64,000 nt of DNA from an uncultured Gammaproteobacteria bacterium (GTDB taxonomy: Bacteria > Patescibacteriota > Patescibacteriia > PEXW01), in contig CAZAMC010000003.1 of NCBI GenBank assembly GCA_964486505.1, forward strand, positions 19,505 to 83,504, written 5' to 3'. The position numbers and the translations under genes were made by a program. The stretch's first letter is position 1; every line of letters starts with the position of its first letter. Below are positions 10,538-55,343 of this stretch, in pieces. The notes under the pieces were generated by a model. That model was not told the origin of the DNA. It made no database searches and saw only the letters and a list, made by a program, of their open reading frames with translations.

Positions 10538-10538
10538 A

Positions 10539-10988: not shown

Positions 10989-10992
10989 ACGA

Positions 10993-30420: not shown

Positions 30421-30424
<4 letters not shown>

Positions 30425-32337
30425 GAAATTGGGCAGTACCCTTCTTCCGGTCCCAAGAAGGACGGCTGGGTGAGAATGTCGTAGGAGTCAAACGTCGTCG
30501 TCCGGTTTATCTGGCAAAAGTTGAAGCCCCCACCACACTGCGCACTCGCATCACAGAGAATTGTGGGGTCATTACTACACTGACCAAAGCCTCCAGAAAA
30601 GTTAGACTCGGTGTTCGCGGGGCTCCGAATAATGAGGAAGCGCGTCGTCACACCCGGGTTGACCGTAATGGGTGTAGGGAGGATGCAGCTACTCGCCGCG
30701 CCGCCATTGAAGGGCTGAATTGTCTGCTCTTGCGCCTTCAGGCTAAGCGACGAGGCATCGGACTGCGTATCGTAGTTGAAGAAGAAAGTAGGACTCGCGC
30801 CACCATTTTCGATGTAGTTCACCTTCACTGTGCGGTTAAACTTCCCCCGGATACGAACGTAATAGTTACACGGCCCAATAGTGCAGTCGGCAAAAGGGGC
30901 ATCGGGCACCACGACGCCAAACTTGTGGGAATTTTGGCCATATGCCGCATTGGTATTGTACTCCGTGAACCCACATTCCACGCTCTGGGGCACATTCCCG
31001 ACAATAGTCTGGAGGCACTTGAAATCAATTGACTGCGTGTCGGTGGTTGTGCCACCGGGGTTAAGCCACAGCTTATTTGCGCCACCAGCCACGCCGTTAC
31101 AGTACGTACTCGTGCTAGCGAAATCGGCGCCGCAATGAACACCTTGCCAATTCTTCCCCTCATGGTTTGGCCCAATAAGTTGGCAGAGCCTGGGCGCGCC
31201 TGGACAAAAGGTGACTTGGTTGACGCCGTAGTAGGTCGTGCACCAATTACGCCCATTGCCATTGCAATCATCCCATTGACCTTGGGCATTCAATTCTGGT
31301 TCACTGGGATTTATGTTTGCCTCAAATTGATAGGGCCCAAAGGTTTTCACATCTTCAGAAACTGATAACTCAATGCTCTTCTCGAGCGTCCGCTCGCTGA
31401 AGATGACAAAGTCGAAGAGCGAGGAAAGCGGCAGCGACCAAGGAAAGGTGGCGACGAGGGCTTGTTTCTGGTTTTTCCCAGAACTCACCGATTTCAACCG
31501 GATCTGGCTGGTGGGTTTGGGGTTCAGGTAGGCATTGAAATTCTTAACGTCCCCGTTCCCGCCCGTGGTTGGCTTCAAGGGAGTAATGCGGATGCGGAAA
31601 CCGGCTAGCGTTGAGGAAAGGGTCGGCTCAAAAGCGGGGTAAAACTGCGTCAAGGGGATCTGCGCACCTTTACCGCCACTCTCGGGAAGCGTGCAGGTGC
31701 TGGAACTCGAAAAATTGGTAAATGAAACCAACACTCGCTGTGAACGAGAGCTCTCTAACCGGGAATTCCACGCAATCCACGTAACTTCCAGCACTTCATC
31801 ATTCGCCCCATCATTGCTCTCCGCGTACACGCAGAGCGTGGGCGCATTGAAGTCTACTGGCGCCCCGGCAACGTTGAGTGAGTCGTCGACGTCGTACATT
31901 TCGACATACACACTCTGGTTCTCAGGTAACTCCGGAATCGTTTCCCCCACGCTCGTCTGGTCGGTAGAGCTCACAAGCTTTGTATCCCCGGTGGGGAAAA
32001 ACGCTTGATTTTCGGCAACGATGATATTTGGGTGCCCACCCTCGCCGACCGGTAGTTCCAGGTCGCGGACTTTCGTGAGAGCGCCAGCCAGGGTTTCACT
32101 GGTCTTCAGCAGTTGCACGGCGTGCAGCCCCTGTTCCAAGCCCGATTCCGCTGCGTAGTACCCTTCGTGCGTGTTGGAAACGACTTCATTAATGCGAACC
32201 TGGGTGACAACCACGGTGCTCACGGTAATGCCAATCGCTACAACAGCCGACATAATCAGCACTGCCAGAATCATGGTTATGCCCCGTTGTTTCTTCCCGA
32301 CTCGGCTAATTCGCATAACGGTTGAACTTATCGGCAT
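30421..32337 (-). CDS. PilX-like large minor pilin / pilus tip protein with Cys-rich C-terminal domain
   Basis: N-terminus KKQRGITMILAVLIMSAVVAIG...EGYYAAESGLEQGL resembles the PilX_N domain. 638 aa, 20+ Cys. Last gene of the minor-pilin operon. Confidence 0.55.
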
Positions 32338-33079
32338 TCTTAAAAACCCGGCTGGCTATGGTCGTCTGGAACGTCTGGCTCACGGTCTGCTGGCCCCCAA
32401 GCCGACTAATGTGCATGCTAAAGGTCACCCGGGGGTGGAATGGGTAGAAGTCATCGCCCACGTCGGTAGTATCGTAGCTGAACTTCTGCGGCGTACAGTA
32501 ACAAGTAGCGCCCTTTGTGAACTGGCACTCACTCGTGACGGGATTCAAGCATAACGTGCCCCAACGACATCCCAAATCGTCAGTGCAGACGTCAGGCACC
32601 TGGGCTGCGTACGGATCTTCGGACGGCGCGACGGCAAAAGTCAAATTGCTCACGGTGAGTACGCTGGGCGTAACGCTCGACCATGAAGAAGCGAAGCTTA
32701 CGTCATCACACGCCGTCGTTTCGGCTACCGGGAGCGTGAGTTTTTCGACGACACTGTTCTGAAGCCGGTACCGAACCTGACGATTGAGCGCGTCAACAAT
32801 GACCAGGCAGTTCTTTCCGGTGCCGTCCAAAGGCGCAAAAAGTTTTGTCCGTTCCAGGGGGAACTGGGTTTTGTAGTACGCGTAATCTACAACACCTTCG
32901 CGCAGCTGGTCCGCAATTTCTTCAATGAGCGCCCGAGCGTCGCTCTGCAGCTCCTGCTGTGAAACAGTACGACGCTGCTGCTGAACGTAGAAGACGAATA
33001 AATTCACGGCCAGTAACGATGCAATACTAAACACTCCGAGGGTAACCACTACTTCAATGAGGGTAAAGCCACGACGCAT
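32306..33079 (-). CDS. Type IV minor pilin (PilW-like), prepilin leader MRRG|FTLIEVVV
   Basis: Class III signal G-FTLIE with E+5. Confidence 0.65.
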   Translation of the reverse strand: MRRGFTLIEVVVTLGVFSIASLLAVNLFVFYVQQQRRTVSQQELQSDARALIEEIADQLREGVVDYAYYKTQFPLERTKLFAPLDGTGKNCLVIVDALNRQVRYRLQNSVVEKLTLPVAETTACDDVSFASSWSSVTPSVLTVSNLTFAVAPSEDPYAAQVPDVCTDDLGCRWGTLCLNPVTSECQFTKGATCYCTPQKFSYDTTDVGDDFYPFHPRVTFSMHISRLGGQQTVSQTFQTTIASRVFKNADKFNRYAN

Positions 33080-33083
33080 AACC

Positions 33084-34238
33084 TTATATGTTAATCCAGT
33101 CGTAGAGGTACTCTTGGTAGCTCACCCGGGTCCGGCTCGTGGGCGTGGGCCAGCGCACTTCGCTGGTCACCAGCACGCCCTCCTTCACTGCCTCAATGTT
33201 GTTCAGCCACCCTTTCACATACCGCGCATGGTCGTAGCAGTTTCCGGCGGAATTTTGGTCCATGACCCACTCCACGTATGGCCCGGTGCCATTCTCCCGG
33301 CCTTTGCAGACCGACTGGAACGTAACCACCCGGTAAAATTTTGTTGGCTGGGCGCCCACCAAACCGCTCACGTTCTGGGTAAACGTACCGTTCACCTCAT
33401 AGACCTGTGAGCTGGCAACATTATCCCAGGCTTCTTGCAGGGTGTAGTTGCCGGTGTCCAGAGCCGTGGACGACGGTGCGGTGAAAAACTTCAACGTCGA
33501 TGATGGAGTCGTTACAGTTCCGGACGGGAAAAGGGCAATGGTAGGATACCCCGCCTGGTAATTGAACGAATTCAAGAACATTTCAGAAATCAAGAAAGAC
33601 AGGTCACCAATGTCGGGCCGCGCTGGACTTGAGTTACTGAAGTTACAGGTCGTCTTCTGTATAGTAGAGCCATCCCAGTACGGTAGGTGCCCAGTATTGT
33701 TGTTGTCACATCCCGGGGGGAGAATCGTTAGGTTTATGTAGAGGTACTCAATGAGCGTTTGGACGTCACACATAATTGCGTCTTCATTCCCTTGGTGTAC
33801 ATCATCACTCACTCCCGTGCACATAGCCTGGGTGTTCGGGTCGGAAGCGTACTTGCCACAGCCTTCACGGTCGTAGAATTTGCACTGCCCACTGGCGTCA
33901 ATATCACCAAGGTCGTATTTGTCTTTGTAATCAACGCCGCCCAACGTTGCACTCTTCTGTACTTTCGCCGCCAGGTACTTGTCCCACGCGCCCCCCGCAA
34001 ACTCTACAGCACTCAACGCCCCCGCGTTGCGGTGAGCGTACGCGAGTTCCATCCCCTCCCGGGCCAAGTTCTGGGCAACAATGCGGTCTTGGTTTACACG
34101 GCCCAAGTTAATGGTGGTCAGTATGAGCACCAGGCTGCCCACTACCCCAATCATAAGTACGCCAATAGCCAGCACGCCTTCCAGGAGCGACGTTCCGCGG
34201 GGGAACTTAGTTCGGTGTAGCAAAGTTGCAATCCGCAT
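33084..34238 (-). CDS. Type IV minor pilin (PilV-like), GTSLLEGVLAIGVLMIG
   Basis: PilV-type N-terminal motif with E+5. Confidence 0.6.
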   Translation of the reverse strand: MRIATLLHRTKFPRGTSLLEGVLAIGVLMIGVVGSLVLILTTINLGRVNQDRIVAQNLAREGMELAYAHRNAGALSAVEFAGGAWDKYLAAKVQKSATLGGVDYKDKYDLGDIDASGQCKFYDREGCGKYASDPNTQAMCTGVSDDVHQGNEDAIMCDVQTLIEYLYINLTILPPGCDNNNTGHLPYWDGSTIQKTTCNFSNSSPARPDIGDLSFLISEMFLNSFNYQAGYPTIALFPSGTVTTPSSTLKFFTAPSSTALDTGNYTLQEAWDNVASSQVYEVNGTFTQNVSGLVGAQPTKFYRVVTFQSVCKGRENGTGPYVEWVMDQNSAGNCYDHARYVKGWLNNIEAVKEGVLVTSEVRWPTPTSRTRVSYQEYLYDWINI

Positions 34239-35244
34239 CGATGTACTGGGTAACGACGTTGCTATTTGTGACTTTTACCACGCGGCAACTCGCCGAGGGC
34301 CGATCGGTGAGCCCAAACATAATTTCAACTGCTGTTACCGGATTCGCCAAATCAAGAGCTGGGGTCACGGCCGCGGTAAGGGGCGCGTACTCAGCCACGT
34401 TATCGGAAAGCTTCACTTCGCGGCCATCGGGCGCAAGGTAACGTATCGTGGCCGCAATCGGGTACGGTTGGCCACCCATTGTGCCAAGTAAATCTGTCGC
34501 GGCCGAATACGGATTCGGAACTTGCTTCGACTGCCAAGGCGAACTCTCGCCACAGCTCACCCAATTCTTGGTCATCCCCGGGGGGTTCTTCGCCCAGGTC
34601 ACCCGTACATTCTGAATCTTGGCATGGGAATCCACAGTGTACTTGGCTACTTGGGTATCCCCCTTCGGGAGCGTTTGAAACAGCAGTGTCGCAATTCCAT
34701 CGGGTGGGAAAATACCATTCGAGTCGTTCATGCCATACTCGGGTGGGAAACACGCGCCGAGTGCTCCGGATCCACTCCCAAAACAATTCGTTCGATCGGC
34801 GACGTAGTAGTAACTCTGGCGCGCATTCGAAATGAGCGCGTAATCGGTACTCGCCGAACTATTGTAGCAACTGAATGCCAACATAAAACCTTTCGGCGGC
34901 ACAGGACTCGCCGCCTCACACGCGGTTCCAATTTTTGGGCAGCAGTGACTGCTGCACCCGGAAGTGCCACTATCGGCGGCACACTTCCCGTTCACCAGCG
35001 CACACGTACACGGCAGGCCGGTTCGATGGTAGCAGAAAAACTGCTGCGTCCCTGCTGCAGTTTGCTCTTGCACAAGCCGCAGCCGACTCATGAACAACGA
35101 TGACTCACGTTGCAGTAGGCTGTCCTGATTTGCGCGTTGGTAGTTGGCGGTTACCAGCACAATGAGAATGCCGCTGATGAGGAGGGTGAGGCTTATTTCA
35201 ATGAGGGTGAAACCCCGAGGGTGCTTACGAGGATTCATAGACAT
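34207..35244 (-). CDS. Type IV minor pilin (FimT/GspH-like), ...PRG|FTLIEISLTLL
   Basis: Prepilin signal; LRLVQEQT motif shared with the next paralog. Start at MSMNPRK or MNPRK is uncertain. Confidence 0.6.
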   Translation of the reverse strand: MSMNPRKHPRGFTLIEISLTLLISGILIVLVTANYQRANQDSLLQRESSLFMSRLRLVQEQTAAGTQQFFCYHRTGLPCTCALVNGKCAADSGTSGCSSHCCPKIGTACEAASPVPPKGFMLAFSCYNSSASTDYALISNARQSYYYVADRTNCFGSGSGALGACFPPEYGMNDSNGIFPPDGIATLLFQTLPKGDTQVAKYTVDSHAKIQNVRVTWAKNPPGMTKNWVSCGESSPWQSKQVPNPYSAATDLLGTMGGQPYPIAATIRYLAPDGREVKLSDNVAEYAPLTAAVTPALDLANPVTAVEIMFGLTDRPSASCRVVKVTNSNVVTQYIDADCNFATPN

Positions 35245-35248
35245 ACGC

Positions 35249-36178
35249 TTAGCTAGCGAAGCTGCAGTTCTCATCAATGTGCTGGGAAATGACGCCTTCT
35301 TTCGTCATCCGGATTACCCGGCAGTCAATTACCCGGTTCTTCAGGCCCAGCATGATGTCCACCTGTGACCAGCTCTTCCCGGTAGTGCCAATGACACCGT
35401 CTACTGCTGCAGTATCGCTGATATTGTCATTCAGCACCACTGCCCGGCCGCCCGGAGGGAGGAAGCGAATGAAAGCTTGCAACGGGTAGTCCGGTGGCAC
35501 GTCATCAGCATGAACGGGCTCTAGCTTCCCATTCCAGGGTGAACCACCCAGGTATGCGCCATTGCGGCAGCGAACCTTTGCCGCACTCTGGGTTTCGGTT
35601 AACTGGATATCAACGATGCTCACTTTTGCATCCAGGTCATGCTGCGCGGTTTGGGGGTCACCCTTGGACCGCGAGAGAATCTCGTAGACGCTGGCAATGC
35701 CATCGGCGGCATTCGTTGTCCACTGCGACCCATCACCGAACACGGGCGGGTAGCACAGGGCCCCGGTCGAACCGCACTGCACGAAGTCGGCCACCGTAAC
35801 GTAGCGGCTTGCCCCGAGCGCACTGGTGGCAAGCTGTGATGCAGGGTACGCCGGTTGGGGGCAAGTGAAGAGCACGCCGTACCCTCCGGCAGGTGTGGTC
35901 TCGGCTTGGCAGGTACCGGGTGAGCACTGGCTATCGGCTGTGCAGAGTGTGCCGGTATCTTCCGTACAGGTGCGAATAGTCGTTCCAGCCGACGTTTGCT
36001 CCTGCGCCAGCCGGATATCGGCTACCAGCAGCGCCGCCTGGCGAACCAGTAAACTATCGTCACTCCCCCGGTTGTACCGTGCGAGGATGAGCCCCAGCAG
36101 TACCGAAAAAATCCCCATCGCGACGAGCACCTCGACGAGTGAGAAGCCTTGATGTTGGAGTTGAGGTTGAGCGGGCAT
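35249..36178 (-). CDS. Type IV minor pilin (FimT/GspH-like paralog), ...HQG|FSLVEVLVAMG
   Basis: Start reset to MPAQPQLQHQGFSLVEV (cat at 36176-36178), 8 nt after the pilD stop. IRLAQEQT motif. Confidence 0.6.
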   Translation of the reverse strand: MPAQPQLQHQGFSLVEVLVAMGIFSVLLGLILARYNRGSDDSLLVRQAALLVADIRLAQEQTSAGTTIRTCTEDTGTLCTADSQCSPGTCQAETTPAGGYGVLFTCPQPAYPASQLATSALGASRYVTVADFVQCGSTGALCYPPVFGDGSQWTTNAADGIASVYEILSRSKGDPQTAQHDLDAKVSIVDIQLTETQSAAKVRCRNGAYLGGSPWNGKLEPVHADDVPPDYPLQAFIRFLPPGGRAVVLNDNISDTAAVDGVIGTTGKSWSQVDIMLGLKNRVIDCRVIRMTKEGVISQHIDENCSFAS

Positions 36179-36186
36179 ATTTCGCG

Positions 36187-36993
36187 CTACCACCCAAGTG
36201 CGCGTTGGTACCAGGATACCACGCTGGGACCGAAAAGGAAGGTCAGCACACTCGCAAATGCTAGAAAACTTCCAAAAGGAATAGCCGTCTTGAAGGTCAC
36301 TCGCCCGCGCAGGAGGAGCACCACGGCCCACACACTGCCCACTACATAGGCAACAAAAAGTGCAGCGAGGGTGTAGGGCAAGCCCAAGAAGATGCCCATG
36401 AGCGCGCCCAGCCGGATGTCGCCCGATCCCACCCACCGGCCTTTCGACACGGCCCACTGTGCCGCAAACCAACCGGCGCCAGCGGCCGCGGCCAACACAA
36501 TAGTCCCCAGCTCTCTGAGCATACCGGACGCTACCGCTTCGCTGCCAAAGTGCGTCACCCGCAGAATTTGCACGATGCCAAGAACCACCATGCCCGATAC
36601 ACTGACGCGATCGGGGACAATGCCAAACTTTCCATCAATAACCCCCAAGACCACAAACCACGCTCCCCCAAGAATGCCCAGGAGCGCGAGCACACTCACC
36701 CCAAACTGCCATGCGGTGAGACCAAAAATCGCTGCCGTGAGAAGTTCTACCGCAAGGTATTGGGCGCTAATAGATTTGTGACAGTACCGGCACCGCCCGC
36801 GCAGGGCTAGATAACTAAAGACGGGTATGAGGTCGAGGACATGGAGTACATGCCGGCAGCGAGGACAGCGCGAACGATTCTTCACGCCAACCACCCGCCG
36901 GCCCTTGGGGATGCGGAGAATGAGGACGTTCAAAAAACTCCCAACGAGAGCGCCGAGGATTACTGCCACGGTTATGGTAAACCCGGCCGGCAT
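36187..36993 (-). CDS. pilD: Prepilin peptidase (A24 family)
   Basis: N-terminal CPRC...CRYC zinc motif; multi-TM; catalytic Asp regions VIDGKFGIVPD and GSGD. Confidence 0.85.
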   Translation of the reverse strand: MPAGFTITVAVILGALVGSFLNVLILRIPKGRRVVGVKNRSRCPRCRHVLHVLDLIPVFSYLALRGRCRYCHKSISAQYLAVELLTAAIFGLTAWQFGVSVLALLGILGGAWFVVLGVIDGKFGIVPDRVSVSGMVVLGIVQILRVTHFGSEAVASGMLRELGTIVLAAAAGAGWFAAQWAVSKGRWVGSGDIRLGALMGIFLGLPYTLAALFVAYVVGSVWAVVLLLRGRVTFKTAIPFGSFLAFASVLTFLFGPSVVSWYQRALGW

Positions 36994-36998
36994 GGCCG

Positions 36999-37415
36999 TT
37001 AGCGAATTCCCGCCGGAGTGAGCGTGTGGCGACCAGCCGCTAGGCCCGTGGCGCCCTTTTCCAACGTGAATGCCACTTCGTAGCTTGTCGCATCGGGCAC
37101 CTTGGTCACCAGGTAATCGCCGCCCCGCGGATCTCGCAGTGTACTAATGGTAGAAAAATCCTGCGCTAAGTTGCAGGTGCGAACGGGAACATTGGCTGTG
37201 CTACACCCATTCTGCGCCGCACCCGCGTAGCTGGCCGTGCGATTGTACAGCAGCAAAAACCCAACCTGGAGCCGAGCCATATCAGCTACGCGTTGGGCAT
37301 CGCGCGACTTAGCTCGCTCTGCACTAATGAGCCGAACGCCAATGAAGAGCACCACGAGCACGATGAGTGCCGCCACTACCATGCTGATCATGGAAACCCC
37401 CCGAGGCTGCTGCAT
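36999..37415 (-). CDS. Pilin-like protein lacking Glu+5 (MQQPRG|VSMISMVVAALIVLVV)
   Basis: Pilin-like hydrophobic N-helix and ...AERAKSRDAQRVADMARLQ...; TGCTATACT -10 lies 8 nt upstream of ATG. Confidence 0.5.
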   Translation of the reverse strand: MQQPRGVSMISMVVAALIVLVVLFIGVRLISAERAKSRDAQRVADMARLQVGFLLLYNRTASYAGAAQNGCSTANVPVRTCNLAQDFSTISTLRDPRGGDYLVTKVPDATSYEVAFTLEKGATGLAAGRHTLTPAGIR

Positions 37416-37423
37416 ATGGCCCT

Positions 37424-37432
37424 AGTATAGCA
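37424..37432 (-). promoter_or_regulatory. Extended -10 TGCTATACT, 8 nt upstream of ATG 37415 (leaderless)
   Basis: Motif recurs at six-plus gene starts in this window. Confidence 0.45.
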
Positions 37433-37435
37433 CGC

Positions 37436-39232
37436 CTACTGAGCCTGCAGTTGCTTCTGGATACCCGCTCGGAGCGTCTGCATATTCACGATATCTGTAG
37501 CGTAGGCAGGGTTGGCCGACCACGACCCTTCGGGATACGCCGCCAAAGCTTTGTCAACAACCGCTACGGCATCGGCCAGACGTTTCTGTGAAATGAGGAA
37601 GTTGGCGTACTCCCCAGCAATGTCTAAGTGGAAGGCATTGTCATACGTCACAGCCTTCTGAAAAGCGTGCTCTGCGTCCGCGTAGCGCCGGTCGGAATAC
37701 TCCACGCGGCCCAGTAGCCGGTACGTGAAGTAATTTGTGGGTGCCCATGCCAATGCTCGGTGCAGCTGCTCACGAGCCCGTTGGAGTGCGCCAGCATCGC
37801 CAGGAGCGCTCACCCACAGCGCTTCGGCAAGTTGGTTGCGACGCGTGGGGTCGGGGTCGTAGCGCAAGCCTTGCGCGTATGTTTGCACGGCGCTCTCGGC
37901 TTCCCCATGCGCTAACGCCCGGTCGGCCCGTTCAAAGTAGGTCCAGGCATACGCCACGCCCAAACCCCGAACGAAAACAATGAGGGCGATCACAACCATG
38001 ACGCTGGTCACGGCAAATCCTGCACGTCTGTTCGGCGCGGTGGTTGGGCCAGCCAGCAAGCCGGCCAGGATGAAAAATGCCACCCACACCGCGGGGAAAT
38101 GCCAACCAAAATCCACGGCGGCGGCAATAGCGCTCCCGCCAATAGCGACGCTCAACCAGGCAAGGTGCCTCTGGTCGGCATTCAAGTCTCGAAAGCGCTC
38201 CGCCACCCGCATCGCCAAAATTATGAACCCGCCCACGAACGCCAGCGCCACCAGCCCGCCGGCTTCTGCGGCAATCTCTAGGTACGCATTGTGGGTGTAC
38301 CGTGGTTGCTCAAAGAGCGTTCGCGCGTATCGCGGGTACGAAATTTGGTATGCCCCAAGCCCCACCCCGGTAAATGGACGGTCGATGAGCATGTCCACGG
38401 CGCTCTGCGCAAAATGCCACCGCTGGCTAAAGCTGGAACGGAAGTGCTCCCCTGAGATGACTTGATCAAGCCGAATTCCCGCTTGGAAGCTCTTCAGCTG
38501 CACCGATCGAAGCCCAACTACCCCTCCCAACAGCACCAACAGAATACCCAGGCTCCACACCACGCGGCGAACATTTACCACGCGCCGGCCAGCTATTACT
38601 ATGCCAATGATGGCGGCCAGGCCCAACCCAAACCATGCCGTGTAGGAATACGTCCGCAGGAGAGCAACGGCAATCACCCCCACGCCGAACCAAGACACAA
38701 TCCGCCAACGGCGCGAGCTACCCAGGGCAACGGCAACACCCACCGGCAGAACGAGCGCTAAGAATGCGCCGAGAGCATTCGCGTTGCCAAGCAGCCCCCC
38801 AGCCCGGTCTGCGCCTTCGGTGAACTGGCTTACCAACGCCCACGCGGCACTGCCCGCCCCGCCAACAAAAACCCAACGGAGTACGTTAGGAACATACGGC
38901 CCAGGGATTTCCCGAGCGGCAATGAACGTGGTGAAGCCGATGAACAGGTACGTGAGGTTCCGAACCGACGCGTAGTGCTGCTGTGACCACACTGCCGTAA
39001 GGGCTGCCAGTGCAAATGTGGCAAGGAACCACACCGTGGGTGAACGCCAGCCTCCCGCCAAAGGGTGCGCGTGGCGAGAAAAAATGACGAGGAGCAACGT
39101 GAGAATGCCAAGAACCGCATCCACCCAAGGTGACCAGTCACCCCCAATGACCGTGGCTACCAGGAAGGCAACCACGAGCGACACGGGCAATATGGATTCG
39201 CGGTGGAGGATCATGCCTAGGGTTGCGGGCAC
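37436..39232 (-). CDS. Wzy_C (O-antigen ligase/PglL-PilO-type oligosaccharyltransferase) family membrane protein with C-terminal TPR repeats
   Basis: 10+ TM; periplasmic-loop motif DRPFTGVGLGAYQISY...YTHNAYLEIAAEAGG; C-terminal ~170 aa TPR-like. The start overlaps the pilin stop by 16 nt. Confidence 0.7.
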   Translation of the reverse strand: MPATLGMILHRESILPVSLVVAFLVATVIGGDWSPWVDAVLGILTLLLVIFSRHAHPLAGGWRSPTVWFLATFALAALTAVWSQQHYASVRNLTYLFIGFTTFIAAREIPGPYVPNVLRWVFVGGAGSAAWALVSQFTEGADRAGGLLGNANALGAFLALVLPVGVAVALGSSRRWRIVSWFGVGVIAVALLRTYSYTAWFGLGLAAIIGIVIAGRRVVNVRRVVWSLGILLVLLGGVVGLRSVQLKSFQAGIRLDQVISGEHFRSSFSQRWHFAQSAVDMLIDRPFTGVGLGAYQISYPRYARTLFEQPRYTHNAYLEIAAEAGGLVALAFVGGFIILAMRVAERFRDLNADQRHLAWLSVAIGGSAIAAAVDFGWHFPAVWVAFFILAGLLAGPTTAPNRRAGFAVTSVMVVIALIVFVRGLGVAYAWTYFERADRALAHGEAESAVQTYAQGLRYDPDPTRRNQLAEALWVSAPGDAGALQRAREQLHRALAWAPTNYFTYRLLGRVEYSDRRYADAEHAFQKAVTYDNAFHLDIAGEYANFLISQKRLADAVAVVDKALAAYPEGSWSANPAYATDIVNMQTLRAGIQKQLQAQ

Positions 39233-39696
39233 GCAGTCACGGCTGCTTCGTCGGCTGTGCTTTTGCTATAGCTCAGCACCCACCATGACCCCGGATTCAC
39301 CGGGCGCTCAAGGAAAGCGTACAAGGTGTAGTTCCCGTTTGGTCGCCCCTCGCTATCGTCACATGCCAAATAGTAGTACCACTCATTTGCACTCGGCGCG
39401 TCTGGCAACTGACCCATGAACTTGGGTTCACCAATGAGCGCGTCGTAGAGCACGTTGCCTGTCGTGCTCGTGTTGTTAAACGGCAACGCCGATGCCTGCG
39501 GCGGGAAGTTCCCAAAGGCATCGTAGTAGAGGGCCAGGGCAGTTCGGACTGAACCCAGGTCGGTCTTACGCTTTGAGTCTCGGGCTCGTTCCCGAGCGCC
39601 CTGCATGGCAATGAGGCCGATAGCGGAAAGGATGCCGATGACCGCAATGACAACTAGCAACTCGATGAGGGTAAAGCCCGATCTGCGTTTCTCCAT
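39217..39696 (-). CDS. Type IV pilin (major-pilin candidate A2), MEKRRSG|[16 protein letters not shown]
   Basis: Canonical prepilin signal with E+5; 160 aa. TGCTATACT -10 lies 6 nt upstream of ATG 39696. Confidence 0.8.
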   Translation of the reverse strand: MEKRRSGFTLIELLVVIAVIGILSAIGLIAMQGARERARDSKRKTDLGSVRTALALYYDAFGNFPPQASALPFNNTSTTGNVLYDALIGEPKFMGQLPDAPSANEWYYYLACDDSEGRPNGNYTLYAFLERPVNPGSWWVLSYSKSTADEAAVTACPQP

Positions 39697-39702
39697 GGCC
39701 AC

Positions 39703-39711
39703 AGTATAGCA
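39703..39711 (-). promoter_or_regulatory. Extended -10 TGCTATACT, 6 nt upstream of the pilin A2 ATG (leaderless)
   Basis: Immediately follows the pilin A1 terminator hairpin. Confidence 0.45.
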
Positions 39712-39736
39712 AAAGAGCGCCTCGTGAGCGCTCTTT
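39712..39736 (-). terminator. Hairpin AAAGAGCGC-N7-GCGCTCTTT after pilin A1
   Basis: Perfect 9-bp stem followed by a T-rich run on the minus strand. Confidence 0.5.
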
Positions 39737-39750
39737 GTGCTTTCAGTAGA

Positions 39751-40257
39751 TTACAAGTAGGTTACGGCGCACGTGCTGGTGTTCAACGTTGCATCACTGT
39801 TTAGTGCTTCTCCTGCTGTACCTTGCGTGTAACTCACAACCCACCATGCATTTTGATTCGCTGGTCGCTCCAGGTTGGTGTACAAAATGTAGGTGTCGTG
39901 ATCCGCTGCTGCAGTAACGTCGCACGTCTTGTAGTAGTACGTGTCCGATGTCTGCGCCATCTTCGGCAGCTTGGAGATGAACTTCTGGGATGAGCCCACA
40001 AGGCCCATGCCAATGGAGTTCACTGTTTGGAATCGGTCATCAAACTCAATGCGCACGAAGGCGGGCGGGAAGTTCTGATACGTATCGTAATACAGCGCCA
40101 AACCCGTCCGGACCTGGCCGGCGTCGCTCTTGCGCTGGCTGTCGCGGGCCTTTTCACGTGCCCCGTTGAGGGCGATGAGGCCGACGGCAGACAGGATACC
40201 GATGATGGCAATAACCACCAAGAGTTCGATGAGGGTAAAACCTTTTCGGTTCGTCAT
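39751..40257 (-). CDS. Type IV pilin (major-pilin candidate A1), MTNRKG|[16 protein letters not shown]
   Basis: Start reset to ATG 40257, preceded by AAGGGAGGTGA SD. Promoter TGCTATACT at 40415-40423 gives a ~150-nt leader. Confidence 0.8.
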
Positions 40258-40414
40258 GTCTGTCACCTCCCTTCGCTTTATGCGGCGAGGCGGATGTCTG
40301 TTTGGGGGATCAGTGATCAGTACTGAACCACCCATCCTCCCTGTCGCCCAGGTAGCTCGACAGCCACTGGGTAACGCAGTTCAGGACAATCCGCAGCCAC
40401 GACAAGATAGATAG

Positions 40415-40452: not shown

Positions 40453-41661
40453 CTACGTAATGGCGTTGCTCACGTTGTAGATTGGCAGCAAAATTGAAGA
40501 AACCATGAAGCCCACACCCACGCCCATGAGGAGCAAAATCACCGGCTCAATGAGCGCAACCAGGTTCCGGACGAGGGCGTCTAGCTCGTTCTCGTAGAAC
40601 TGCGCCACTTTGAGCAACACCTGATCCAACCGACCCGACTGTTCACCCACGCTCATCATCTGGGAAAGCATGAGCGGCACTTGCTTGCTGCGGACGAATA
40701 CGGTGGTAATGGAATTGCCGTCTTCAACCTCCCGAATGGTCTTGTCGAGGATGCCCGAGTACACGTGGTTGCCTACCACTTCCGAGGTAATGCCCAGGGC
40801 CTGGGAAATCGGCACACCGGAGGCCAAGAGTGTGGACAGCGACCGGGCCAGGCGGGTGAGGTAAATCATGGTAAAAATCTTGCCACCAATGGGCATCCGG
40901 AGCTTCACAATGTCCAAAATCCGTCGGCCATTCGCGGTCTTCCGCCAGTAGTAGAAGCCCACAACCACGCCGACGAAGAGCGCAATGACAATGTACCACT
41001 GGTTGCGCATGAAGTTGCTCGTCCAGATCAGGAGCTTGGTTGTAAGCGGGAGCTCCACGCCACCCTGGGTGAAAATTTCAAGAAGTTTTGGCAGGACAAA
41101 AACAACCATCACAATTGCTACCACGACCACCGCGAAGAGCACGACCGCCGGGTAAATGAAGGCCCCCCGGACACGGCTCATGATGCCGTAATCTTTCTCG
41201 CGCTGGTCGGCAAGGTAGATGAGGACTTCGTCCAGCTTGCCGGTGGTTTCACCAGATCGGATCATGGACACGAAGAAGGTGTTGAACACGTTCGGGTAAC
41301 GCGCCATTGCTGCCGAAAGCTTGGCGCCGCCATCGACTTCATCCAGGATGTCCGACAAAATCATCTTGAAGTGCACGTTCTTGGTTTGGCGCACCAGAAT
41401 GCGCAGGGCGCGGACGATTGGCACGTTAGCCGAAATCATCACGGAAAGCTGCCGAGCAAAAATGACTTGCTCCTTAACGGTTACCCGACGGAACAAATCC
41501 GCACTGAAGAACTTCGCGCTCTTCGCCCGCTCTTTCAGGCTCACAATGGTCAGCTGCTTCTCCCGTAGGGTGTCGTACGCAACGGACTCCGATGGCGCGA
41601 CAACGGCACCTTCAACAGTCTGGCCTCCTAAATTTTTGGCGCGGTAATCGTAGATCGCCAT
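40453..41661 (-). CDS. pilC: Type IV pilus platform protein PilC (GspF family)
   Basis: 402 aa; two GspF repeats; 3 TM. Confidence 0.9.
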   Translation of the reverse strand: MAIYDYRAKNLGGQTVEGAVVAPSESVAYDTLREKQLTIVSLKERAKSAKFFSADLFRRVTVKEQVIFARQLSVMISANVPIVRALRILVRQTKNVHFKMILSDILDEVDGGAKLSAAMARYPNVFNTFFVSMIRSGETTGKLDEVLIYLADQREKDYGIMSRVRGAFIYPAVVLFAVVVVAIVMVVFVLPKLLEIFTQGGVELPLTTKLLIWTSNFMRNQWYIVIALFVGVVVGFYYWRKTANGRRILDIVKLRMPIGGKIFTMIYLTRLARSLSTLLASGVPISQALGITSEVVGNHVYSGILDKTIREVEDGNSITTVFVRSKQVPLMLSQMMSVGEQSGRLDQVLLKVAQFYENELDALVRNLVALIEPVILLLMGVGVGFMVSSILLPIYNVSNAIT

Positions 41662-41664
41662 ACG

Positions 41665-42741
41665 CTAGCTCCGGTTCGCAATCGAACGAATGTTGGCCGG
41701 GTCCACGGCCATCGCCTCGGCATCGGCGAGCTGAATGTCGCCCGTGCGCACGTACTCCGCGAGCGAGCGATCCAAGGAAATTGCTCCCTCTTCACGTGCC
41801 GTTTGCACGGCGTTGGCGAGCTGGAGGAACTGGCCATCCCGCACGAGTGCCCGCAGGCCGGTGGTGGGAGTGAGGACCCCACAGACGAGAATGCGCCCCC
41901 CACCCATGCGCGGCACCAGCCGCTGGTTGAGGATGCCAATGAGGGATTCGGCCAGGTGTTTGCGCGCCCACGCCTGCTCATCACTGGGGAAGGCGGCGGT
42001 GAGGAGTTCCAGGGCCTGCACAGAGGAGTCGGTGGTCATGGAGGCAATGACGAGCCGGCCGCTGTGTACCGCCCGCACGCACGCCTGCATGCTCGCCGCA
42101 TCCTCAAGCTCGCTCACCACGAGCACGTCCACATCTTCGCGGTCAGCCCCCGCAATGCCCGCGGCGGTCGTGGGGACGTCCGACCCAACTTCCCGCTGCT
42201 CAATGATGCTCTTCTCACTAGAAAACAAAAACTCAATCGGCCGTTCAATGGTCACCAGGTGTGCCGCCCGCTTGTGGTTAATGCTATTCACCATGGCGGC
42301 CATGGTCGTGGTGCGACCAGAACCGTAAGGGCCCACCAAGAGCACGAGGCCGTGTGTACTCTGGGCATACTGCTCGACAACCGCGGGCAATCCCAGGTCT
42401 TGAATTGTTGGAATTGCATCCGGGATGTACCGCAGGTCGAGGGAGAGATTCCCCTTCTGGTACTTGGCCACCAGCCGGAAACGGAGCTTCCCTTCCAGCG
42501 TCAAGGTGGTACGCAAGTCCCGTTCCCGCTCCAACGCCTCCCGCTGAGCCGGGCTGAGGATTGCTTCAACGTAGGCACGGAGCAGGTCCACGCTCAACGG
42601 CGCTTCTTGTTCCAACGTTAAAAGTTTGCCGTCGACGCGAAAGACGGGCGGGCTGCCCGCAAGCAAATGCACATCCGACGCCCGATACTGGGTGGCTTGA
42701 ATGAGGATGCGCGAGATTGCTTGTTGCTCAGAGGTAAGCAT
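41665..42741 (-). CDS. pilT: PilT-like retraction ATPase homolog with degenerate Walker A (GPYGSGRTTT) and His-box
   Basis: PilT fold and size (358 aa). The P-loop Lys is replaced by Arg. The canonical His-box (…TGHLVF.TLHT…) reads SGRLVIASMTT. Confidence 0.75.
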   Translation of the reverse strand: MLTSEQQAISRILIQATQYRASDVHLLAGSPPVFRVDGKLLTLEQEAPLSVDLLRAYVEAILSPAQREALERERDLRTTLTLEGKLRFRLVAKYQKGNLSLDLRYIPDAIPTIQDLGLPAVVEQYAQSTHGLVLLVGPYGSGRTTTMAAMVNSINHKRAAHLVTIERPIEFLFSSEKSIIEQREVGSDVPTTAAGIAGADREDVDVLVVSELEDAASMQACVRAVHSGRLVIASMTTDSSVQALELLTAAFPSDEQAWARKHLAESLIGILNQRLVPRMGGGRILVCGVLTPTTGLRALVRDGQFLQLANAVQTAREEGAISLDRSLAEYVRTGDIQLADAEAMAVDPANIRSIANRS

Positions 42742-42775: not shown

Positions 42776-43195
42776 TTACTTCACCAGACGCTTTACTTTT
42801 GCCACAACTTCCGAGGGCATGAAGTGGGCTTTAATAAGGTAGTCGGTAGCGCCTAGTGCAAAACCCTTCTGCACGTCTTCCTTCTGGCCCAGGTTAGTGA
42901 GGAGTACCACTGTGGTGGCCTTTGTCTGAGGGTCTGCCTTTACTTCTTTCAAAACATCGAAGCCACTCTTCTTGGGTAAGACGACGTCCAGTAGCATGAG
43001 CTGGGGCTGCTCCCGTTTGGCAAGAACCAGCGCTTGTTCGCCGTCACTCGCGAGCACAACACGAAAGCCCTCGAGCTCGAGCTTTGTTACGTACATACCG
43101 GCCAAAAAGGTATCATCCTCAACGAGGAGAATTGTGCGCTTGCGGCTCTTTTCGGCCGGGCGCGAGGCGCCATTCTTCTTCAGTGCTTGGGGCAT
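42776..43195 (-). CDS. Single-domain response regulator (REC only; PilH/PilG-like position)
   Basis: LLVEDD, LMLLDVVLP, TNLGQKEDVQKG..ATDYLIK. Sits between pilT and pilB. Confidence 0.8.
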   Translation of the reverse strand: MPQALKKNGASRPAEKSRKRTILLVEDDTFLAGMYVTKLELEGFRVVLASDGEQALVLAKREQPQLMLLDVVLPKKSGFDVLKEVKADPQTKATTVVLLTNLGQKEDVQKGFALGATDYLIKAHFMPSEVVAKVKRLVK

Positions 43196-43207: not shown

Positions 43208-44971
43208 TTACTCTTGCGTAGCGCGCAAAACTTCTTCAACGGTGGTCATCCCCAACGTGGCCTTCACAAAACCATCTTGCTGCATGGTGATGACGCCCTG
43301 CCGCTTCGCTTCGGCTTTAATGTCGGCGAGCTTCGAACCGCTGGTGATGATTTGCTGGAGCTGATCGGTAACCTCAATGACCTCGGCCACGACCAAGCGG
43401 CCTTTGTACCCGCTGTTCCCGCAGCGCGTGCAGCCTTTCCCGTGCATGAACTGCATCTTATTTTCTAGAGAGAAGTCCTTCGGGAGCGCTTGAACTGGGG
43501 CGGTGCGGAGCGAATCTATAACTTCTTGCTGTGTGGATTTCGGAATCTCCTGTGGTTCTTTGCAGTACTCACAAATGCGGCGCACCAGACGTTGGGCAAT
43601 AATTGTAGAAAGTGAGGAGGCAATGAGGAACGGTTCCACTTTCATATCTATGAGGCGCGGAATGGCCCCAAAGGCATCGTTGGTGTGGAGGGTGGAGAAC
43701 ACCAAGTGACCAGTGAGGGCGGCGTTGACGGCGAGCTCCGCCGTCTCGGTATCGCGAATTTCACCAACCATGACCACGTCGGGGTCTTGGCGCAGGATAG
43801 AACGCAGGCCGTTGGCAAAGGTGAGCCCGACTTCCGGGTTAATCTGGCTCTGGTTCACGCCTTCCATGTGGTACTCCACCGGATCTTCCAGGGTGACGAT
43901 GTTAATGTCTTCCGTGTTAATCATGCCCAGCAGCGTGTACAGCGTGGTCGACTTACCCGAGCCAGTGGGGCCCGTGCTGAGCACCATGCCCTGGGTGGAA
44001 TCGAGCGACTTCACCAGAACCTCTTTTTCGCGGGCAATGAAGCCCAGGTCGTCCAGATTCAGCTTCTTGGCCGATGAGTCAAGAATACGCATGACGACCT
44101 TCTCATTGTTCATGAGCGGCAAGGTGGAAACGCGTAGGTCAATGGACTTGCCGTCAACTTCGGTGTGGAAGCGTCCGTCTTGCGGCAGACGAGTTTCATC
44201 CAGCTTGAGGTTAGAGATGACCTTAATGCGCGCTACGATAGCGGCGTGCACGTACGGCGGAAGCTTAATGGAAGTATGAAGGATGCCATCAACACGGTAG
44301 CGGACGCGCGAGCCTTCGGCCGTTGGCTCAACGTGGATATCGGAGGCGCTGCCTTCAATGGCGTGGCGCAGAATAACCGCCACCATTTTCGAGACCGGCG
44401 CCGTCTTAATGACTTCCTCAATGCCCTTATCGGCTAAGCTAATCTCATCAAGGGGGCTCGTGGTTGGCTTCTCCGTGGGGGTGGCGGCTTCCAGCGCTTC
44501 CTGCACTTCAGCGGTGAGACTGGCGTACTGTTTGAGTATGCTGGTGATGGCCGAGGCAGACGCAATGTGGTACTTGAGCACAAAGTTCCGGTTCCGAGCC
44601 AGGAACTCCACCGCTTCCAACGCCCGGAAGTTGGTCGGGTCAACCAGAGCTATGCTCAACTCGTGCCCATCCTTAGCAAAAGCGACGAGCTGGTAGTTCT
44701 TCGCGAGGTCCCGCGGAATAATGTTCAGGAGGTCGGGCGAAATGACGCGGCCTTGGAGATCGATGTACGGGATTTGAAATACCTCGGCGCGGGCTTGGGC
44801 GATACTGTCGTCACGGACATAGCCTTGTTTTTCAAGTATCTCAAGAACCGAGACATGCTTCGCCCGTGCTTCCCGCTGGGCAATATCCAACTGCTCACGC
44901 GAAATGGCTTTCTGTTCTAGCAGAACAGCCGCGATGTCGCGCAGGGGTGTTTGTTGCACAGCAGTGGTCAT
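43208..44971 (-). CDS. pilB: Type IV pilus assembly ATPase PilB (GspE family)
   Basis: N-terminal GSPII_E_N domain; Walker A GPTGSGKSTT; tetra-Cys CEYC...CTRC. Confidence 0.9.
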   Translation of the reverse strand: MTTAVQQTPLRDIAAVLLEQKAISREQLDIAQREARAKHVSVLEILEKQGYVRDDSIAQARAEVFQIPYIDLQGRVISPDLLNIIPRDLAKNYQLVAFAKDGHELSIALVDPTNFRALEAVEFLARNRNFVLKYHIASASAITSILKQYASLTAEVQEALEAATPTEKPTTSPLDEISLADKGIEEVIKTAPVSKMVAVILRHAIEGSASDIHVEPTAEGSRVRYRVDGILHTSIKLPPYVHAAIVARIKVISNLKLDETRLPQDGRFHTEVDGKSIDLRVSTLPLMNNEKVVMRILDSSAKKLNLDDLGFIAREKEVLVKSLDSTQGMVLSTGPTGSGKSTTLYTLLGMINTEDINIVTLEDPVEYHMEGVNQSQINPEVGLTFANGLRSILRQDPDVVMVGEIRDTETAELAVNAALTGHLVFSTLHTNDAFGAIPRLIDMKVEPFLIASSLSTIIAQRLVRRICEYCKEPQEIPKSTQQEVIDSLRTAPVQALPKDFSLENKMQFMHGKGCTRCGNSGYKGRLVVAEVIEVTDQLQQIITSGSKLADIKAEAKRQGVITMQQDGFVKATLGMTTVEEVLRATQE

Positions 44972-46152
44972 AGGGCGATGAAGGGGTTCGCCCGACCGGG
45001 TACGGATAAATCTTGAGTTGTCGATCGATTTCCCGCATTGTCAACAGCCACGACGGTGTAGTACGCCGTCGCGCCCGCCACGACTTCGGTATCTTCAAAG
45101 CACAAGGTTTTTGCGCATTCAGTGCCAGTCAATTGCGCTGCATCCTGAAGTTGAACCAGGTCTTTCACAAGCTTCGACGCTACTAAAGCGCCAAGATTCA
45201 TGGCCTGGTTCGAGCGGAAAATGCGGTACTCCACGACATCGGCAGACGAGGACGGCTCCCAGGTTACCCGCATGCGCGGCTGGGCGCTATTCGTTGTATC
45301 GAGGATCGCCCGCACTCCATCGGGCGGGTTCGGTGCGGTTGTGTCCGTTGCGAGCACGCTCACTGTGGCGGGCGTACCACTCCCCGTTGCGCCCACCCAG
45401 CGGAATGTGTAGAAGTGCAGTCCCGCCCGACCGCTCGCATCTTCAAACGTGCTGCCGTCGGTGCCCAACCGGGCTACCCGGGCCCCGAGGACCCCCACTT
45501 CTGCCGACCGGTACACTTCAACGTTCTCAAATTCGCCATTCGGTTTCCCATACTGCAGGGTCACACCATTGTCATCGGCGCGTGTGACACTCACCAATCC
45601 GCCCACCGAACCCGCCGCGGCAGACACCTGTGGCGACTCTTGGAGTATCGATTGTTGAATGTAAACTACTTCGTAGGTAATGCGCGTGCCTGTTGGCGCC
45701 TCACGGAAGACGTAGGTCGTTGACGGCACCGGTAAGGTTGCCAAATTCTTGCGTTCTTCACTCCCCACAATCTGGTTCACCCGCACGAGCGTCGCTCGAG
45801 TCTCGTCCGTTGGGCGTTCCCACGTGAGGAGCACGGCGCTCCCGGTTTGCATGTCAAACCCCTGCAGTGATTTTGGTGGGAGCAGCAGTTCCGATGGACG
45901 ACTTGCCGAGGCCTGCGTAATGAGGGCCGTCCCCTGCTTGGGCACAAGGCCGTAGAAACGGCTATCACTGAAGAGATCTTGTCCAAAATCAGTGGGTACG
46001 GTTTTCTTCGCTGGCGCTTGCGTAACCCCCACCGGCTCCGCCCCGCTGAAAAAATTCACGTACACAACGTACCCTGCTAGAAGTGCAAGGGCCACGCCGC
46101 CCCCAATGAGGAGGTAGCGAATGCGATTTGGGGCTTGTTTTTGGACGAGCAT
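44968..46152 (-). CDS. Single-pass membrane protein with two fibronectin type III-like domains (possible PilP/Q-replacing component)
   Basis: N-terminal TM, then VLLTWERPTD... and MRVTWEPSSSADVVEYRIFRS...YYTVVAVDNAGNRS FN3 signatures. Confidence 0.5.
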   Translation of the reverse strand: MLVQKQAPNRIRYLLIGGGVALALLAGYVVYVNFFSGAEPVGVTQAPAKKTVPTDFGQDLFSDSRFYGLVPKQGTALITQASASRPSELLLPPKSLQGFDMQTGSAVLLTWERPTDETRATLVRVNQIVGSEERKNLATLPVPSTTYVFREAPTGTRITYEVVYIQQSILQESPQVSAAAGSVGGLVSVTRADDNGVTLQYGKPNGEFENVEVYRSAEVGVLGARVARLGTDGSTFEDASGRAGLHFYTFRWVGATGSGTPATVSVLATDTTAPNPPDGVRAILDTTNSAQPRMRVTWEPSSSADVVEYRIFRSNQAMNLGALVASKLVKDLVQLQDAAQLTGTECAKTLCFEDTEVVAGATAYYTVVAVDNAGNRSTTQDLSVPGRANPFIAL

Positions 46153-46155
46153 ACG

Positions 46156-46752
46156 TTACTGCTGGAGGTAGTAGCTACGGAAAGAAAAGCTGTACGACGT
46201 GGGGGTAGACCCGCTGGAAGGCGTGTGTGAAATTGCCGTGAGATCCAAGAGGGGGGCTTGCCGGGATACTACATCGAGGAAATTCTTTAATTGGGTATAG
46301 TTCAACTGACCACCCAGAATGACGGAGACGGTAAGGGTGTGAACATTGCTCGCCGTTGCTTGCTCGGCAGTTGAAGCGATAACCGCCCCATCGGCAACGG
46401 ATACCGAGAGGAGCTCCATGCTTGCCTCGCGGGCAAAGGCTTGCATTTGCCGGAAAATACCAGGCACATCTTTGCCCTTAGGCAACACCGCATCCAGGCG
46501 CGCGAGGTCATCGTTCGAGATGGTGCGGAGTTCAGCCCGAAGCGCCTGCAGATCTTTCAGGTATTCCTCTTGCACTTTCAGTGTCTCAAGCTTCTGGTTG
46601 TAATTCAGCCCACCTAATTCTTTCACGGTCCGGTACCGCGGCACAATAATGGTGTAGGCGCCAATGATGAGCACGAGCACGGCAACAACAGCGCCAACTG
46701 CCAAAATGTGGCGGAGGAGGAAGCGGGTAATGCTGGTGAGAGACAAGCGCAT
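46156..46752 (-). CDS. pilO: PilO-like inner-membrane pilus alignment protein
   Basis: N-terminal TM plus coiled coil plus ferredoxin-like C-terminus; position after pilN. Confidence 0.6.
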   Translation of the reverse strand: MRLSLTSITRFLLRHILAVGAVVAVLVLIIGAYTIIVPRYRTVKELGGLNYNQKLETLKVQEEYLKDLQALRAELRTISNDDLARLDAVLPKGKDVPGIFRQMQAFAREASMELLSVSVADGAVIASTAEQATASNVHTLTVSVILGGQLNYTQLKNFLDVVSRQAPLLDLTAISHTPSSGSTPTSYSFSFRSYYLQQ

Positions 46753-53345: not shown

Positions 53346-53367
53346 GGGAGTGTTGTTTTGTAAAAAT

Positions 53368-53376
53368 ATTGTACCA
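53368..53376 (-). promoter_or_regulatory. Extended -10 TGGTACAAT, 22 nt upstream of the giant-protein ATG
   Basis: Follows the terminator of the upstream adhesin-like gene. Confidence 0.4.
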
Positions 53377-53412
53377 TGAAAAACATAAAAAAGCAAGGGC
53401 TTCAGTTTCACT
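53376..53412 (-). terminator. Rho-independent terminator AAGGGCTTCAG-N5-CTGAAGCCCTT + T6
   Basis: 11-bp stem and T-run on the minus strand after the 602-aa gene. Confidence 0.55.
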
Positions 53413-55250: not shown

Positions 55251-55288
55251 GGCTTTTTTGGTTATCGTTGCGGGTAAACCCTGCGTAC

Positions 55289-55319
55289 GGTATACTCCAG
55301 GGGTTAGCGGCAGTATACC
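55289..55319. promoter_or_regulatory. Inverted repeat GGTATACT-N15-AGTATACC in a divergent promoter region
   Basis: Each arm contains TATACT/TATACC -10 hexamers on opposite strands. Same arms are found upstream of clpC. Confidence 0.45.
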
Positions 55320-55343
55320 ATTTTCCCCTAACCTTGTACACCT

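Follow-up and report, generated by a model that had tools for sequence, protein, structure and literature searches.

A conserved clade of PilT-family proteins with a degenerate ATPase active site in the type IV pilus operons of Patescibacteria

Introduction

Can a PilT protein whose ATPase active site is degenerate still be the retraction motor of a type IV pilus, and if it cannot, for what role has it been kept? This question is raised by an open reading frame (ORF) of 358 amino acids (aa) with an ATG start, which lies at 41665..42741 on the (-) strand of a 64-kb stretch of Patescibacteria (Candidate Phyla Radiation, CPR) DNA; the whole stretch of 64,000 nucleotides (contig CAZAMC010000003.1 of assembly GCA_964486505.1) is called the window. 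The ORF encodes a PilT-family protein with a degenerate active site, hereafter the degenerate PilT, and sits inside a complete type IV pilus locus, all genes of which are on the (-) strand. The ultrasmall, host-dependent Patescibacteria have few conserved surface machines; type IV pili are one of these and are thought to serve host attachment, DNA uptake and motility. Annotation pipelines name these degenerate proteins PilT, papers on Parcubacteria, Microgenomates and Patescibacterium name pilT simply as the retraction ATPase, and genome papers routinely cite "pilT" in support of retraction or twitching (PMC5220378, PMC7143001, PMC11809585).

We describe here a conserved, monophyletic and catalytically degenerate PilT subfamily, which replaces canonical PilT in many Patescibacteria pilus operons. 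This subfamily is apparently unreported; in the full-text literature, the coverage of which leaves out most subscription journals, no paper was found on a PilT that is degenerate or a pseudo-ATPase, whether from Patescibacteria or from other organisms.

Results

Identification of the PilT-family protein

The degenerate PilT matched the profile TIGR01420 (pilT_fam) end to end, residues 9-349 lying on profile positions 2-342, and its score of 304.8 bits was a near miss of the curated cutoff (319.1 bits); Pfam T2SSE was also matched. An AlphaFold2 model (predicted local distance difference test 92.8; predicted template modeling score 0.89) had the two-domain PilT fold, composed of an N-terminal PAS-like domain and a RecA-like C-terminal domain. 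The best Foldseek matches of this model were solved structures of PilT2 and PilT4, with template modeling (TM) scores of 0.84-0.90, while the sequence identity to solved PilTs was approximately 32-36%. The ORF at 41665-42741 thus encodes a full-length PilT homologue with a confidently predicted fold.

Two other assignments were examined and rejected. The phmmer score against PilU (164 bits) was below that against PilT (228.9 bits), there is no adjacent pilT, and the motifs are degenerate; the protein was not taken as PilU for these reasons. The PilB profile TIGR02538 gave only 53.8 bits, over the core, and no MshEN match was found. An assignment as PilB/GspE was rejected because the protein has 358 aa against approximately 560-600 aa and lacks both the N-terminal MshEN/N1 domain and the tetracysteine Zn motif. 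By fold, length, best profile and operon slot, it is a PilT-family protein, which fails at three defining residues (the Walker A Lys and the two His-box His).

Active-site motifs

The register of the motifs was set by a nearly gap-free phmmer alignment with PilT of Aquifex aeolicus (2EWV). The Walker A motif or P-loop (aa 137-146; 42304..42333 on the (-) strand) reads GPYGSGRTTT against GPTGSGKSTT in 2EWV, and Arg143 aligns with the Lys; its codon, CGC at 42313-42315, is at least two base changes away from any Lys codon. In the Asp box (aa 164-171; 42229..42252, (-)), which reads TIERPIEF against TIEDPIEY, Glu166 is kept and Asp is replaced by Arg167. The atypical Walker B motif (aa 203-214; 42100..42135, (-)), DVDVLVVSELED against DPDVIFVGEMRD, has Ser210 in place of Gly and keeps the catalytic Glu211. 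The Arg after the catalytic Glu is replaced by Glu213, at the position equivalent to R206 of Vibrio cholerae PilT, for which an R206S change has been described in strain MO10 (PMC6762196). In the His box (aa 227-237, SGRLVIASMTT; 42031..42063, (-)), SGRLVIASMTTD against TGHLVFGTLHTN, Arg229 takes the place of the first His and Thr236 that of the second. An earlier reading of the same DNA made from its letters (the sequence-only reading) had claimed the Walker A Lys-to-Arg change and the replacement of both His-box histidines, and the 2EWV alignment agrees with it on each of these residues; it had missed three further replacements, those of Asp in the Asp box, of Gly in Walker B and of the Arg that follows the catalytic Glu, as well as the retention of E211, E166, R87 and R104.

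The residues kept are Glu211, the Asp-box Glu166, Thr144, the P-loop glycines, and R87, R89 and R104 of the N-terminal domain; R87 and R104 are the two Arg fingers of this domain, and both are present. Both Walker motifs, A and B, the catalytic Glu, the two Arg fingers and the Asp-box Glu have been described as completely conserved across PilT-like ATPases (McCallum 2017; PMC5424180), the Asp-box Glu having a Mg-coordinating role and being completely conserved in the superfamily (PMC5424180). The helix equivalent to AIRNLIRE (aa 295-303, GLRALVRDG; 41833..41859, (-)) was compared by columns between the degenerate and canonical sets described below; its A-x-R-x-x-I-R-[DE]-G core is kept in part by the degenerate PilT, and the clade consensus is A[VI]R[AS][LV]I[RK][DE]G.

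Mis-registered motifs, or a canonical P-loop hidden elsewhere, were ruled out by the 2EWV alignment and a P-loop scan: no other G..G.GK[ST] occurs anywhere in the protein, and a six-frame scan of the window found only one other T2SSE-type P-loop, that of PilB. A composition artefact was also considered for the Lys-to-Arg change and rejected, because PilB of the same operon keeps its Lys and relatives at 27-46% guanine-plus-cytosine (GC) content also have Arg.

The clade of degenerate homologues

The best 120 matches to the degenerate PilT are all approximately 357 aa long, range from 90% down to 39% identity and come, as do the other relatives, from records with Patescibacteria (CPR) labels. 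Almost all of them have GPxGSGR in the P-loop, K/R/Q/H in the Asp box and a His box of the form [SG]R...N/T-TDS, and only two of the 120 are canonical. More than 100 independent assemblies, the GC contents of which range from 27 to 62%, carry identical substitutions. The clade includes taxa labelled Nomurabacteria, Kerfeldbacteria, Komeilibacteria, Buchananbacteria and Microgenomatus. Several GTDB records with a Patescibacteria-type order of PilB, response regulator, degenerate PilT and PilC are titled "uncultured Gammaproteobacteria bacterium" (L013, L015, L018, L022, L024 and other TPA_asm records); these titles look like mislabels.

For a comparison by alignment columns, a profile search of 1.84 billion cluster representatives provided 190 complete non-canonical and 93 canonical domains. 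Each key residue is essentially invariant in the canonical set (Walker A Lys and both His-box His in 93/93, Asp-box Asp in 92/93). In the degenerate set, R87 (187/190), G137 (189/190), G142 (188/190), Ser/Thr144 (188/190) and E166 (187/190) are kept, and R104 is found in 127 of the 190 domains, with K in another 18. Position 143 is R in 143 domains, K in 43 and another residue (occasionally L, V or Q) in 4; the first His-box position is R or K in 156/190, and the second is N, T, D, S or E. Of the 190 domains, only 138 retain the catalytic Glu, and among 71 cluster representatives at 50% identity only 27 do so. Across the clade, the binding half of the list of PilT-conserved residues is therefore kept while the catalytic half is drifting, a pattern that appears as the signature of a site in which binding is retained and catalysis relaxed.

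The sequence-only reading had treated the substitutions as a peculiarity of one gene and had left open whether relatives share them; they are shared by approximately 190 Patescibacteria homologues and, in the phylogeny, belong instead to the ancestral state of a whole operon lineage. In a neighbor-joining (NJ) tree, all 47 degenerate sequences formed one bipartition with a bootstrap value of 100/100, and of 98/100 when four motif regions were masked. The PilBs of the degenerate operons also formed one bipartition (NJ bootstrap 100/100). To judge from these trees, the active site seems to have degenerated once, long ago, within one operon lineage, and the degenerate active site appears to be the conserved ancestral state of a large and old Patescibacteria clade, not a one-off.

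Selection and evolutionary rate

In comparison with the relative L004 (90% amino-acid identity), the ratio of nonsynonymous to synonymous substitution rates (dN/dS) was 0.034 for the degenerate PilT, 0.039 for PilB and 0.051 for PilC, values that are approximate since dS exceeds 1 and is saturated. To judge from these ratios, the gene is clearly maintained under purifying selection, like PilB and PilC. The divergence of the degenerate PilT is 1.22 times that of PilB in the same operon (595 genome pairs; interquartile range (IQR) 1.17-1.28), and that of canonical Patescibacteria PilT is 0.83 times (78 pairs; IQR 0.77-0.89). Relative to PilB, the degenerate PilT thus evolves approximately 1.5 times faster than canonical PilT, which points to looser constraint.

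The canonical PilT of low-GC Paceibacteria is hyper-conserved, with 83% identity between two genomes against 63-66% for PilC, LigA and GatA. It has an unusual P-loop, GPAGHGKTTT (L006 and L008 at 10001-11071; P0145, P0271-P0389), and PilT of this type is 81-97% identical among its best 120 matches.

Operon context and search for a second PilT

A scan of GTDB species representatives provided 80 loci, 46 degenerate and 34 canonical. The order PilB-receiver-degenerate PilT-PilC is found in 36 of the 46 degenerate loci; the others are at contig ends or belong to one orphan subclade. The identical order is found with a fully canonical PilT in eight Patescibacteria loci; they carry the labels Saccharibacteria, Parcubacteria-group and Yonathbacteria, and a closed UBA2103 genome is among them. 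In the low-GC Paceibacteria L006 and L008, canonical PilT stands in a PilT-PilC-pilin-PilD-minor pilins-LigA-GatC-GatA arrangement, with downstream synteny as in the window. Because canonical PilT holds the same position in these other Patescibacteria operons, the degenerate PilT fills the slot of the operon's PilT.

The gene between PilB and the degenerate PilT encodes a stand-alone response-regulator receiver (42776-43195, (-); Pfam Response_reg, 73.7 bits), in which D27, D28 and D70 (acidic pocket and phospho-acceptor) are invariant in 47/47 sequences. It was considered as a hallmark of the degenerate PilT and rejected as such, since the same receiver is found in the eight canonical-PilT operons.

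A search of the window and of the 10 kb on either side of each of the 46 degenerate loci found no second PilT-like gene. The claim of the sequence-only reading that this is the sole PilT-like ATPase consequently holds for the window and for ±10 kb around the 46 relatives, and as a genome-wide statement goes beyond the searched range. The patterns used in the GTDB scan (VDQREVG, TIEDPIE) do not match canonical PilT of the P0145 type, and co-occurrence with it is not detectable by that scan. The best 120 matches to the degenerate PilT and the best 120 to the canonical Paceibacteria PilT had no long contig in common, which is uninformative for such small subsets, and a PilB query from L055 had no match on contigs of the genomes with P0145-type canonical PilT.

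One degenerate PilT subclade (L028, L029, L030, L031, L044 and L056; gene at about 10001-11071), which has Lys in Walker A but degenerate Asp and His boxes, is located outside pilus operons, with a PilM gene directly downstream in 6/6 loci. In L044, this PilT-PilM pair is flanked by Der and Pth upstream and by Mfd downstream.

Tandem PilT-PilT fusions of approximately 730-770 aa were found in metagenome-assembled genomes labelled Myxococcaceae, Chthoniobacteraceae and similar (L043, L047, L050-L052, L066, L068, L070, L078; P0123-P0129, P0174). Usually both halves are canonical, and the N-terminal half is degenerate in P0129, P0174 and P0168; these proteins appear to represent a separate instance in which a pseudo-PilT module is fused to an active PilT. 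The tandem-domain matches were considered as Patescibacteria fusions of degenerate and canonical PilT and rejected, because they belong to a non-Patescibacteria (Myxococcaceae-like) tandem PilT family.

Other genes of the window

The PilB assembly ATPase (43208-44971, (-)) matched TIGR02538 with 575 bits and has MshEN and T2SSE domains; all its motifs are canonical, in accordance with the sequence-only reading, which had described them as intact. Upstream of PilB, Pfam matches identified PilM (48044-49156, (-)), a PilN-like protein (46755-48035, (-)) and a PilO-like protein (46156-46752, (-)), and a conserved 394-aa protein of no assigned function (44968-46152, (-)) is directly upstream of PilB. 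The same order of PilM, PilN-like, PilO-like and 394-aa genes is found in the relatives L001, L002 and L004. In the PilN-like protein (426 aa), a proline-rich low-complexity N-terminal region of approximately 200 aa stands ahead of the transmembrane and PilN part. Two large ORFs without a Pfam match (1415 aa at 49164-53411 and 647 aa at 53442-55385, both (-)) are directly upstream of PilM, and ORFs of 1012 and 1323 aa without a match hold this position in L001 and L002.

On the other side, the platform protein PilC (40453-41661, (-); Pfam T2SSF, 193.9 bits) starts 3 nucleotides past the stop codon of the degenerate PilT gene, which is translationally close-coupled to pilC. Two pilins with N_methyl matches (39751-40335 and 39217-39702, both (-)) are followed by a 598-aa protein (37436-39232, (-)) with a Wzy_C match (O-antigen ligase family) and C-terminal tetratricopeptide (TPR) repeats. 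This protein is embedded among pilin genes, in the same place in L002 and L004, and may be a pilin O-oligosaccharyltransferase. A small pilin-like ORF comes before the prepilin peptidase PilD (36187-36993, (-); A24 match), and a minor-pilin-like cluster runs down to LigA and then GatA, the pilin-to-LigA block lying within 30421..40335 (-). The rest of the window is ordinary chromosome, with ribosomal proteins, EF-Tu, EF-G, SecY, MetK, a ClpB-like protein and tRNAs.

Discussion

Possible function of the degenerate PilT

Our best reading, with a probability of approximately one half, is that the degenerate PilT is a nucleotide-binding pseudo-ATPase, hydrolysis-dead or very slow, which acts as a non-motor part of the pilus machine, i.e., as a brake, gate or exchange factor. 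A regulatory pseudo-ATPase had been one of the alternatives offered by the sequence-only reading, and it is the one favored by the comparative data, in which a monophyletic clade under purifying selection has invariant binding residues and drifting catalytic ones; the other alternative of that reading, retraction driven by PilB alone, finds no direct support in them. The marks of a pseudoenzyme, namely an enzyme fold that is kept, catalytic residues that are lost, and purifying selection, are all found in this protein.

The mechanism that we propose is as follows. The degenerate PilT would descend from the PilT retraction ATPase of the operon and would still form a PilT-like ring. Nucleotide would still be bound, and hydrolyzed very slowly or not at all: binding is suggested by a P-loop scaffold that is intact, by the retention of the Ser/Thr, the Mg-binding Glu and the Arg fingers, and by the positive charge that persists at positions 143 and 229, and very slow or absent turnover by six changes at positions invariant in canonical PilT and by the fact that much of the clade has lost the catalytic Glu. 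The ring would dock on the PilC/PilM platform in place of PilB and in competition with it, as is suggested by the AIRNLIRE core, which is kept in part, by other PilT-specific surfaces that are kept, and by the close coupling of the gene to pilC. The docked protein would be a nucleotide-dependent brake, gate or exchange factor, which ends extension and permits slow unpowered disassembly only, and the conserved receiver between PilB and the degenerate PilT would probably feed into this switch.

Several points weigh against this reading. The docking on PilC/PilM and the control by the receiver are suggested by gene order and residue conservation. In the query's own subclade (at least 60% identity, n = 25), the catalytic Glu211, Glu166 and the Arg fingers are kept in 25/25, and both Lys-to-Arg and His-to-Arg preserve charge, so slow but real hydrolysis may occur. 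Another part of the genome may encode an active PilT/PilU partner. NJ trees may suffer from long-branch attraction, and the saturation of dS makes the purifying selection less exactly measured. That Lys-to-Arg would abolish hydrolysis in this protein is drawn by analogy from other P-loop ATPases; in P-loop NTPases, e.g., RecA K72R, a Walker A Lys-to-Arg change usually spares binding and cuts hydrolysis by orders of magnitude.

Three other explanations have to be compared with the pseudo-ATPase. The protein could be a natural ATPase-dead PilT that recruits or activates an intact PilT/PilU-type ATPase encoded elsewhere, which powers retraction. We consider this unlikely, even though V. cholerae PilT with a mutated Walker A/B still allows retraction as long as PilU is active (PMC6762196), a canonical and hyper-conserved PilT is present in other Paceibacteria, tandem fusions outside Patescibacteria join a degenerate N-terminal half to a canonical C-terminal half (P0129, P0174), and the genome outside the window and the ±10-kb loci lay beyond the search. 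The window has no T2SSE ATPase besides PilB, none of the 46 relatives has another PilT-like gene within 10 kb, and the slot held here by the degenerate protein, upstream of PilC, PilD and LigA-GatCA, is the one in which the canonical PilT of Paceibacteria stands. A working retraction ATPase with a rewired site, in which Arg143 serves for the Walker A Lys and Arg229 for the gamma-phosphate-sensing His, has in our estimate no better prospects than such a partner. The residues kept in the query subclade, which include Ser/Thr144, would fit a motor, and so would the conservation, as opposed to random replacement, of Arg143 and Arg/Lys229, the charge preserved by both changes, and a purifying selection as strong as on PilB. 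On the other hand, six positions that vary little or not at all among 93 canonical domains have all changed together, the relative evolutionary rate is raised, and the general behavior of P-loop NTPases with Lys-to-Arg speaks against a motor. Moreover, the wider clade loses the catalytic Glu in most representatives and occasionally has L, V or Q at position 143; therefore, the function shared by the clade would not be one that depends on hydrolysis. A decaying pseudogene, a sequencing error or mis-registered motifs would be suggested by the unusual residues themselves and by nothing beyond, and this explanation is extremely improbable: it is refuted by the intact frame of canonical length, the dN/dS of approximately 0.03, the substitutions shared by more than 100 assemblies, the CGC codon with its two changes, and the 2EWV register.

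Comparison with known systems

Canonical PilT (Aquifex 2EWV, Pseudomonas aeruginosa 3JVV, Geobacter PilT4 6OJX and PilT of the Saccharibacteria TM7x, the last described with ATP-binding and hydrolysis sites; PMC12206443) has in common with the degenerate PilT the length, the two-domain fold (TM up to 0.90), the slot between PilB, with or without the receiver, and PilC, the Arg fingers, the Asp-box Glu, the catalytic Glu, QREVGxD and GGG(R), and in part the IR[DE]G core of AIRNLIRE. It differs in six residues that are replaced in the degenerate protein, namely Lys of Walker A, Asp of the Asp box, Gly of Walker B, the Arg that follows the catalytic Glu, and the two histidines of the His box. PilU is likewise a PilT paralogue under the same NCBIfam model, and it forms a second PilT-like ring that depends on another ring; however, it keeps and needs all catalytic motifs (PMC6762196) and is normally next to pilT, whereas the degenerate PilT has no neighboring pilT. 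The engineered ATPase-dead PilT of V. cholerae (K136A / E204A) resembles it in that a non-hydrolyzing PilT ring is still functionally relevant at the machine, but this is a laboratory mutant that needs an active PilU, while the degenerate PilT is natural, ancient, clade-wide and multiply substituted, with no visible PilU.

The bifunctional Tad motor CpaF (PMC11300603) and the second type IV pilus locus of TM7x (T4P-2; PMC12206443) are earlier examples of pilus dynamics or function in which a canonical PilT motor is missing. These systems have no PilT gene, whereas here a PilT-derived protein is retained under strong selection. The alpha subunit of F1-ATPase is a non-catalytic nucleotide binder, in which the P-loop is kept, the catalytic carboxylate or sensor residues are lost, and the role is structural or regulatory. 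It belongs to an unrelated family and works in a hetero-hexamer with catalytic beta subunits; no such partner is seen for the degenerate PilT, and the likeness is conceptual.

Implications for pili of Patescibacteria

A further-reaching proposal, which we regard as possible and advance tentatively, is that a large ancient Patescibacteria lineage converted its only PilT to a nucleotide-binding, non-hydrolyzing ring and has no powered retraction motor. Retraction would then be passive, PilB-driven or absent, the degenerate PilT together with the CheY-like receiver would be a clutch on PilB, and the conclusion from "pilT" to twitching or retraction in CPR reconstructions would be wrong for this lineage.

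One recombinant protein would be enough for a direct test of the pseudo-ATPase claim. If PilT is non-catalytic in a large part of the phylum, the existing inferences of retraction and twitching need revisiting, and many of these bacteria may not retract their pili in the textbook way. The clade would then also be a natural experiment on the roles of the PilT ring beyond ATP hydrolysis and on the disassembly of a pilus without a motor.

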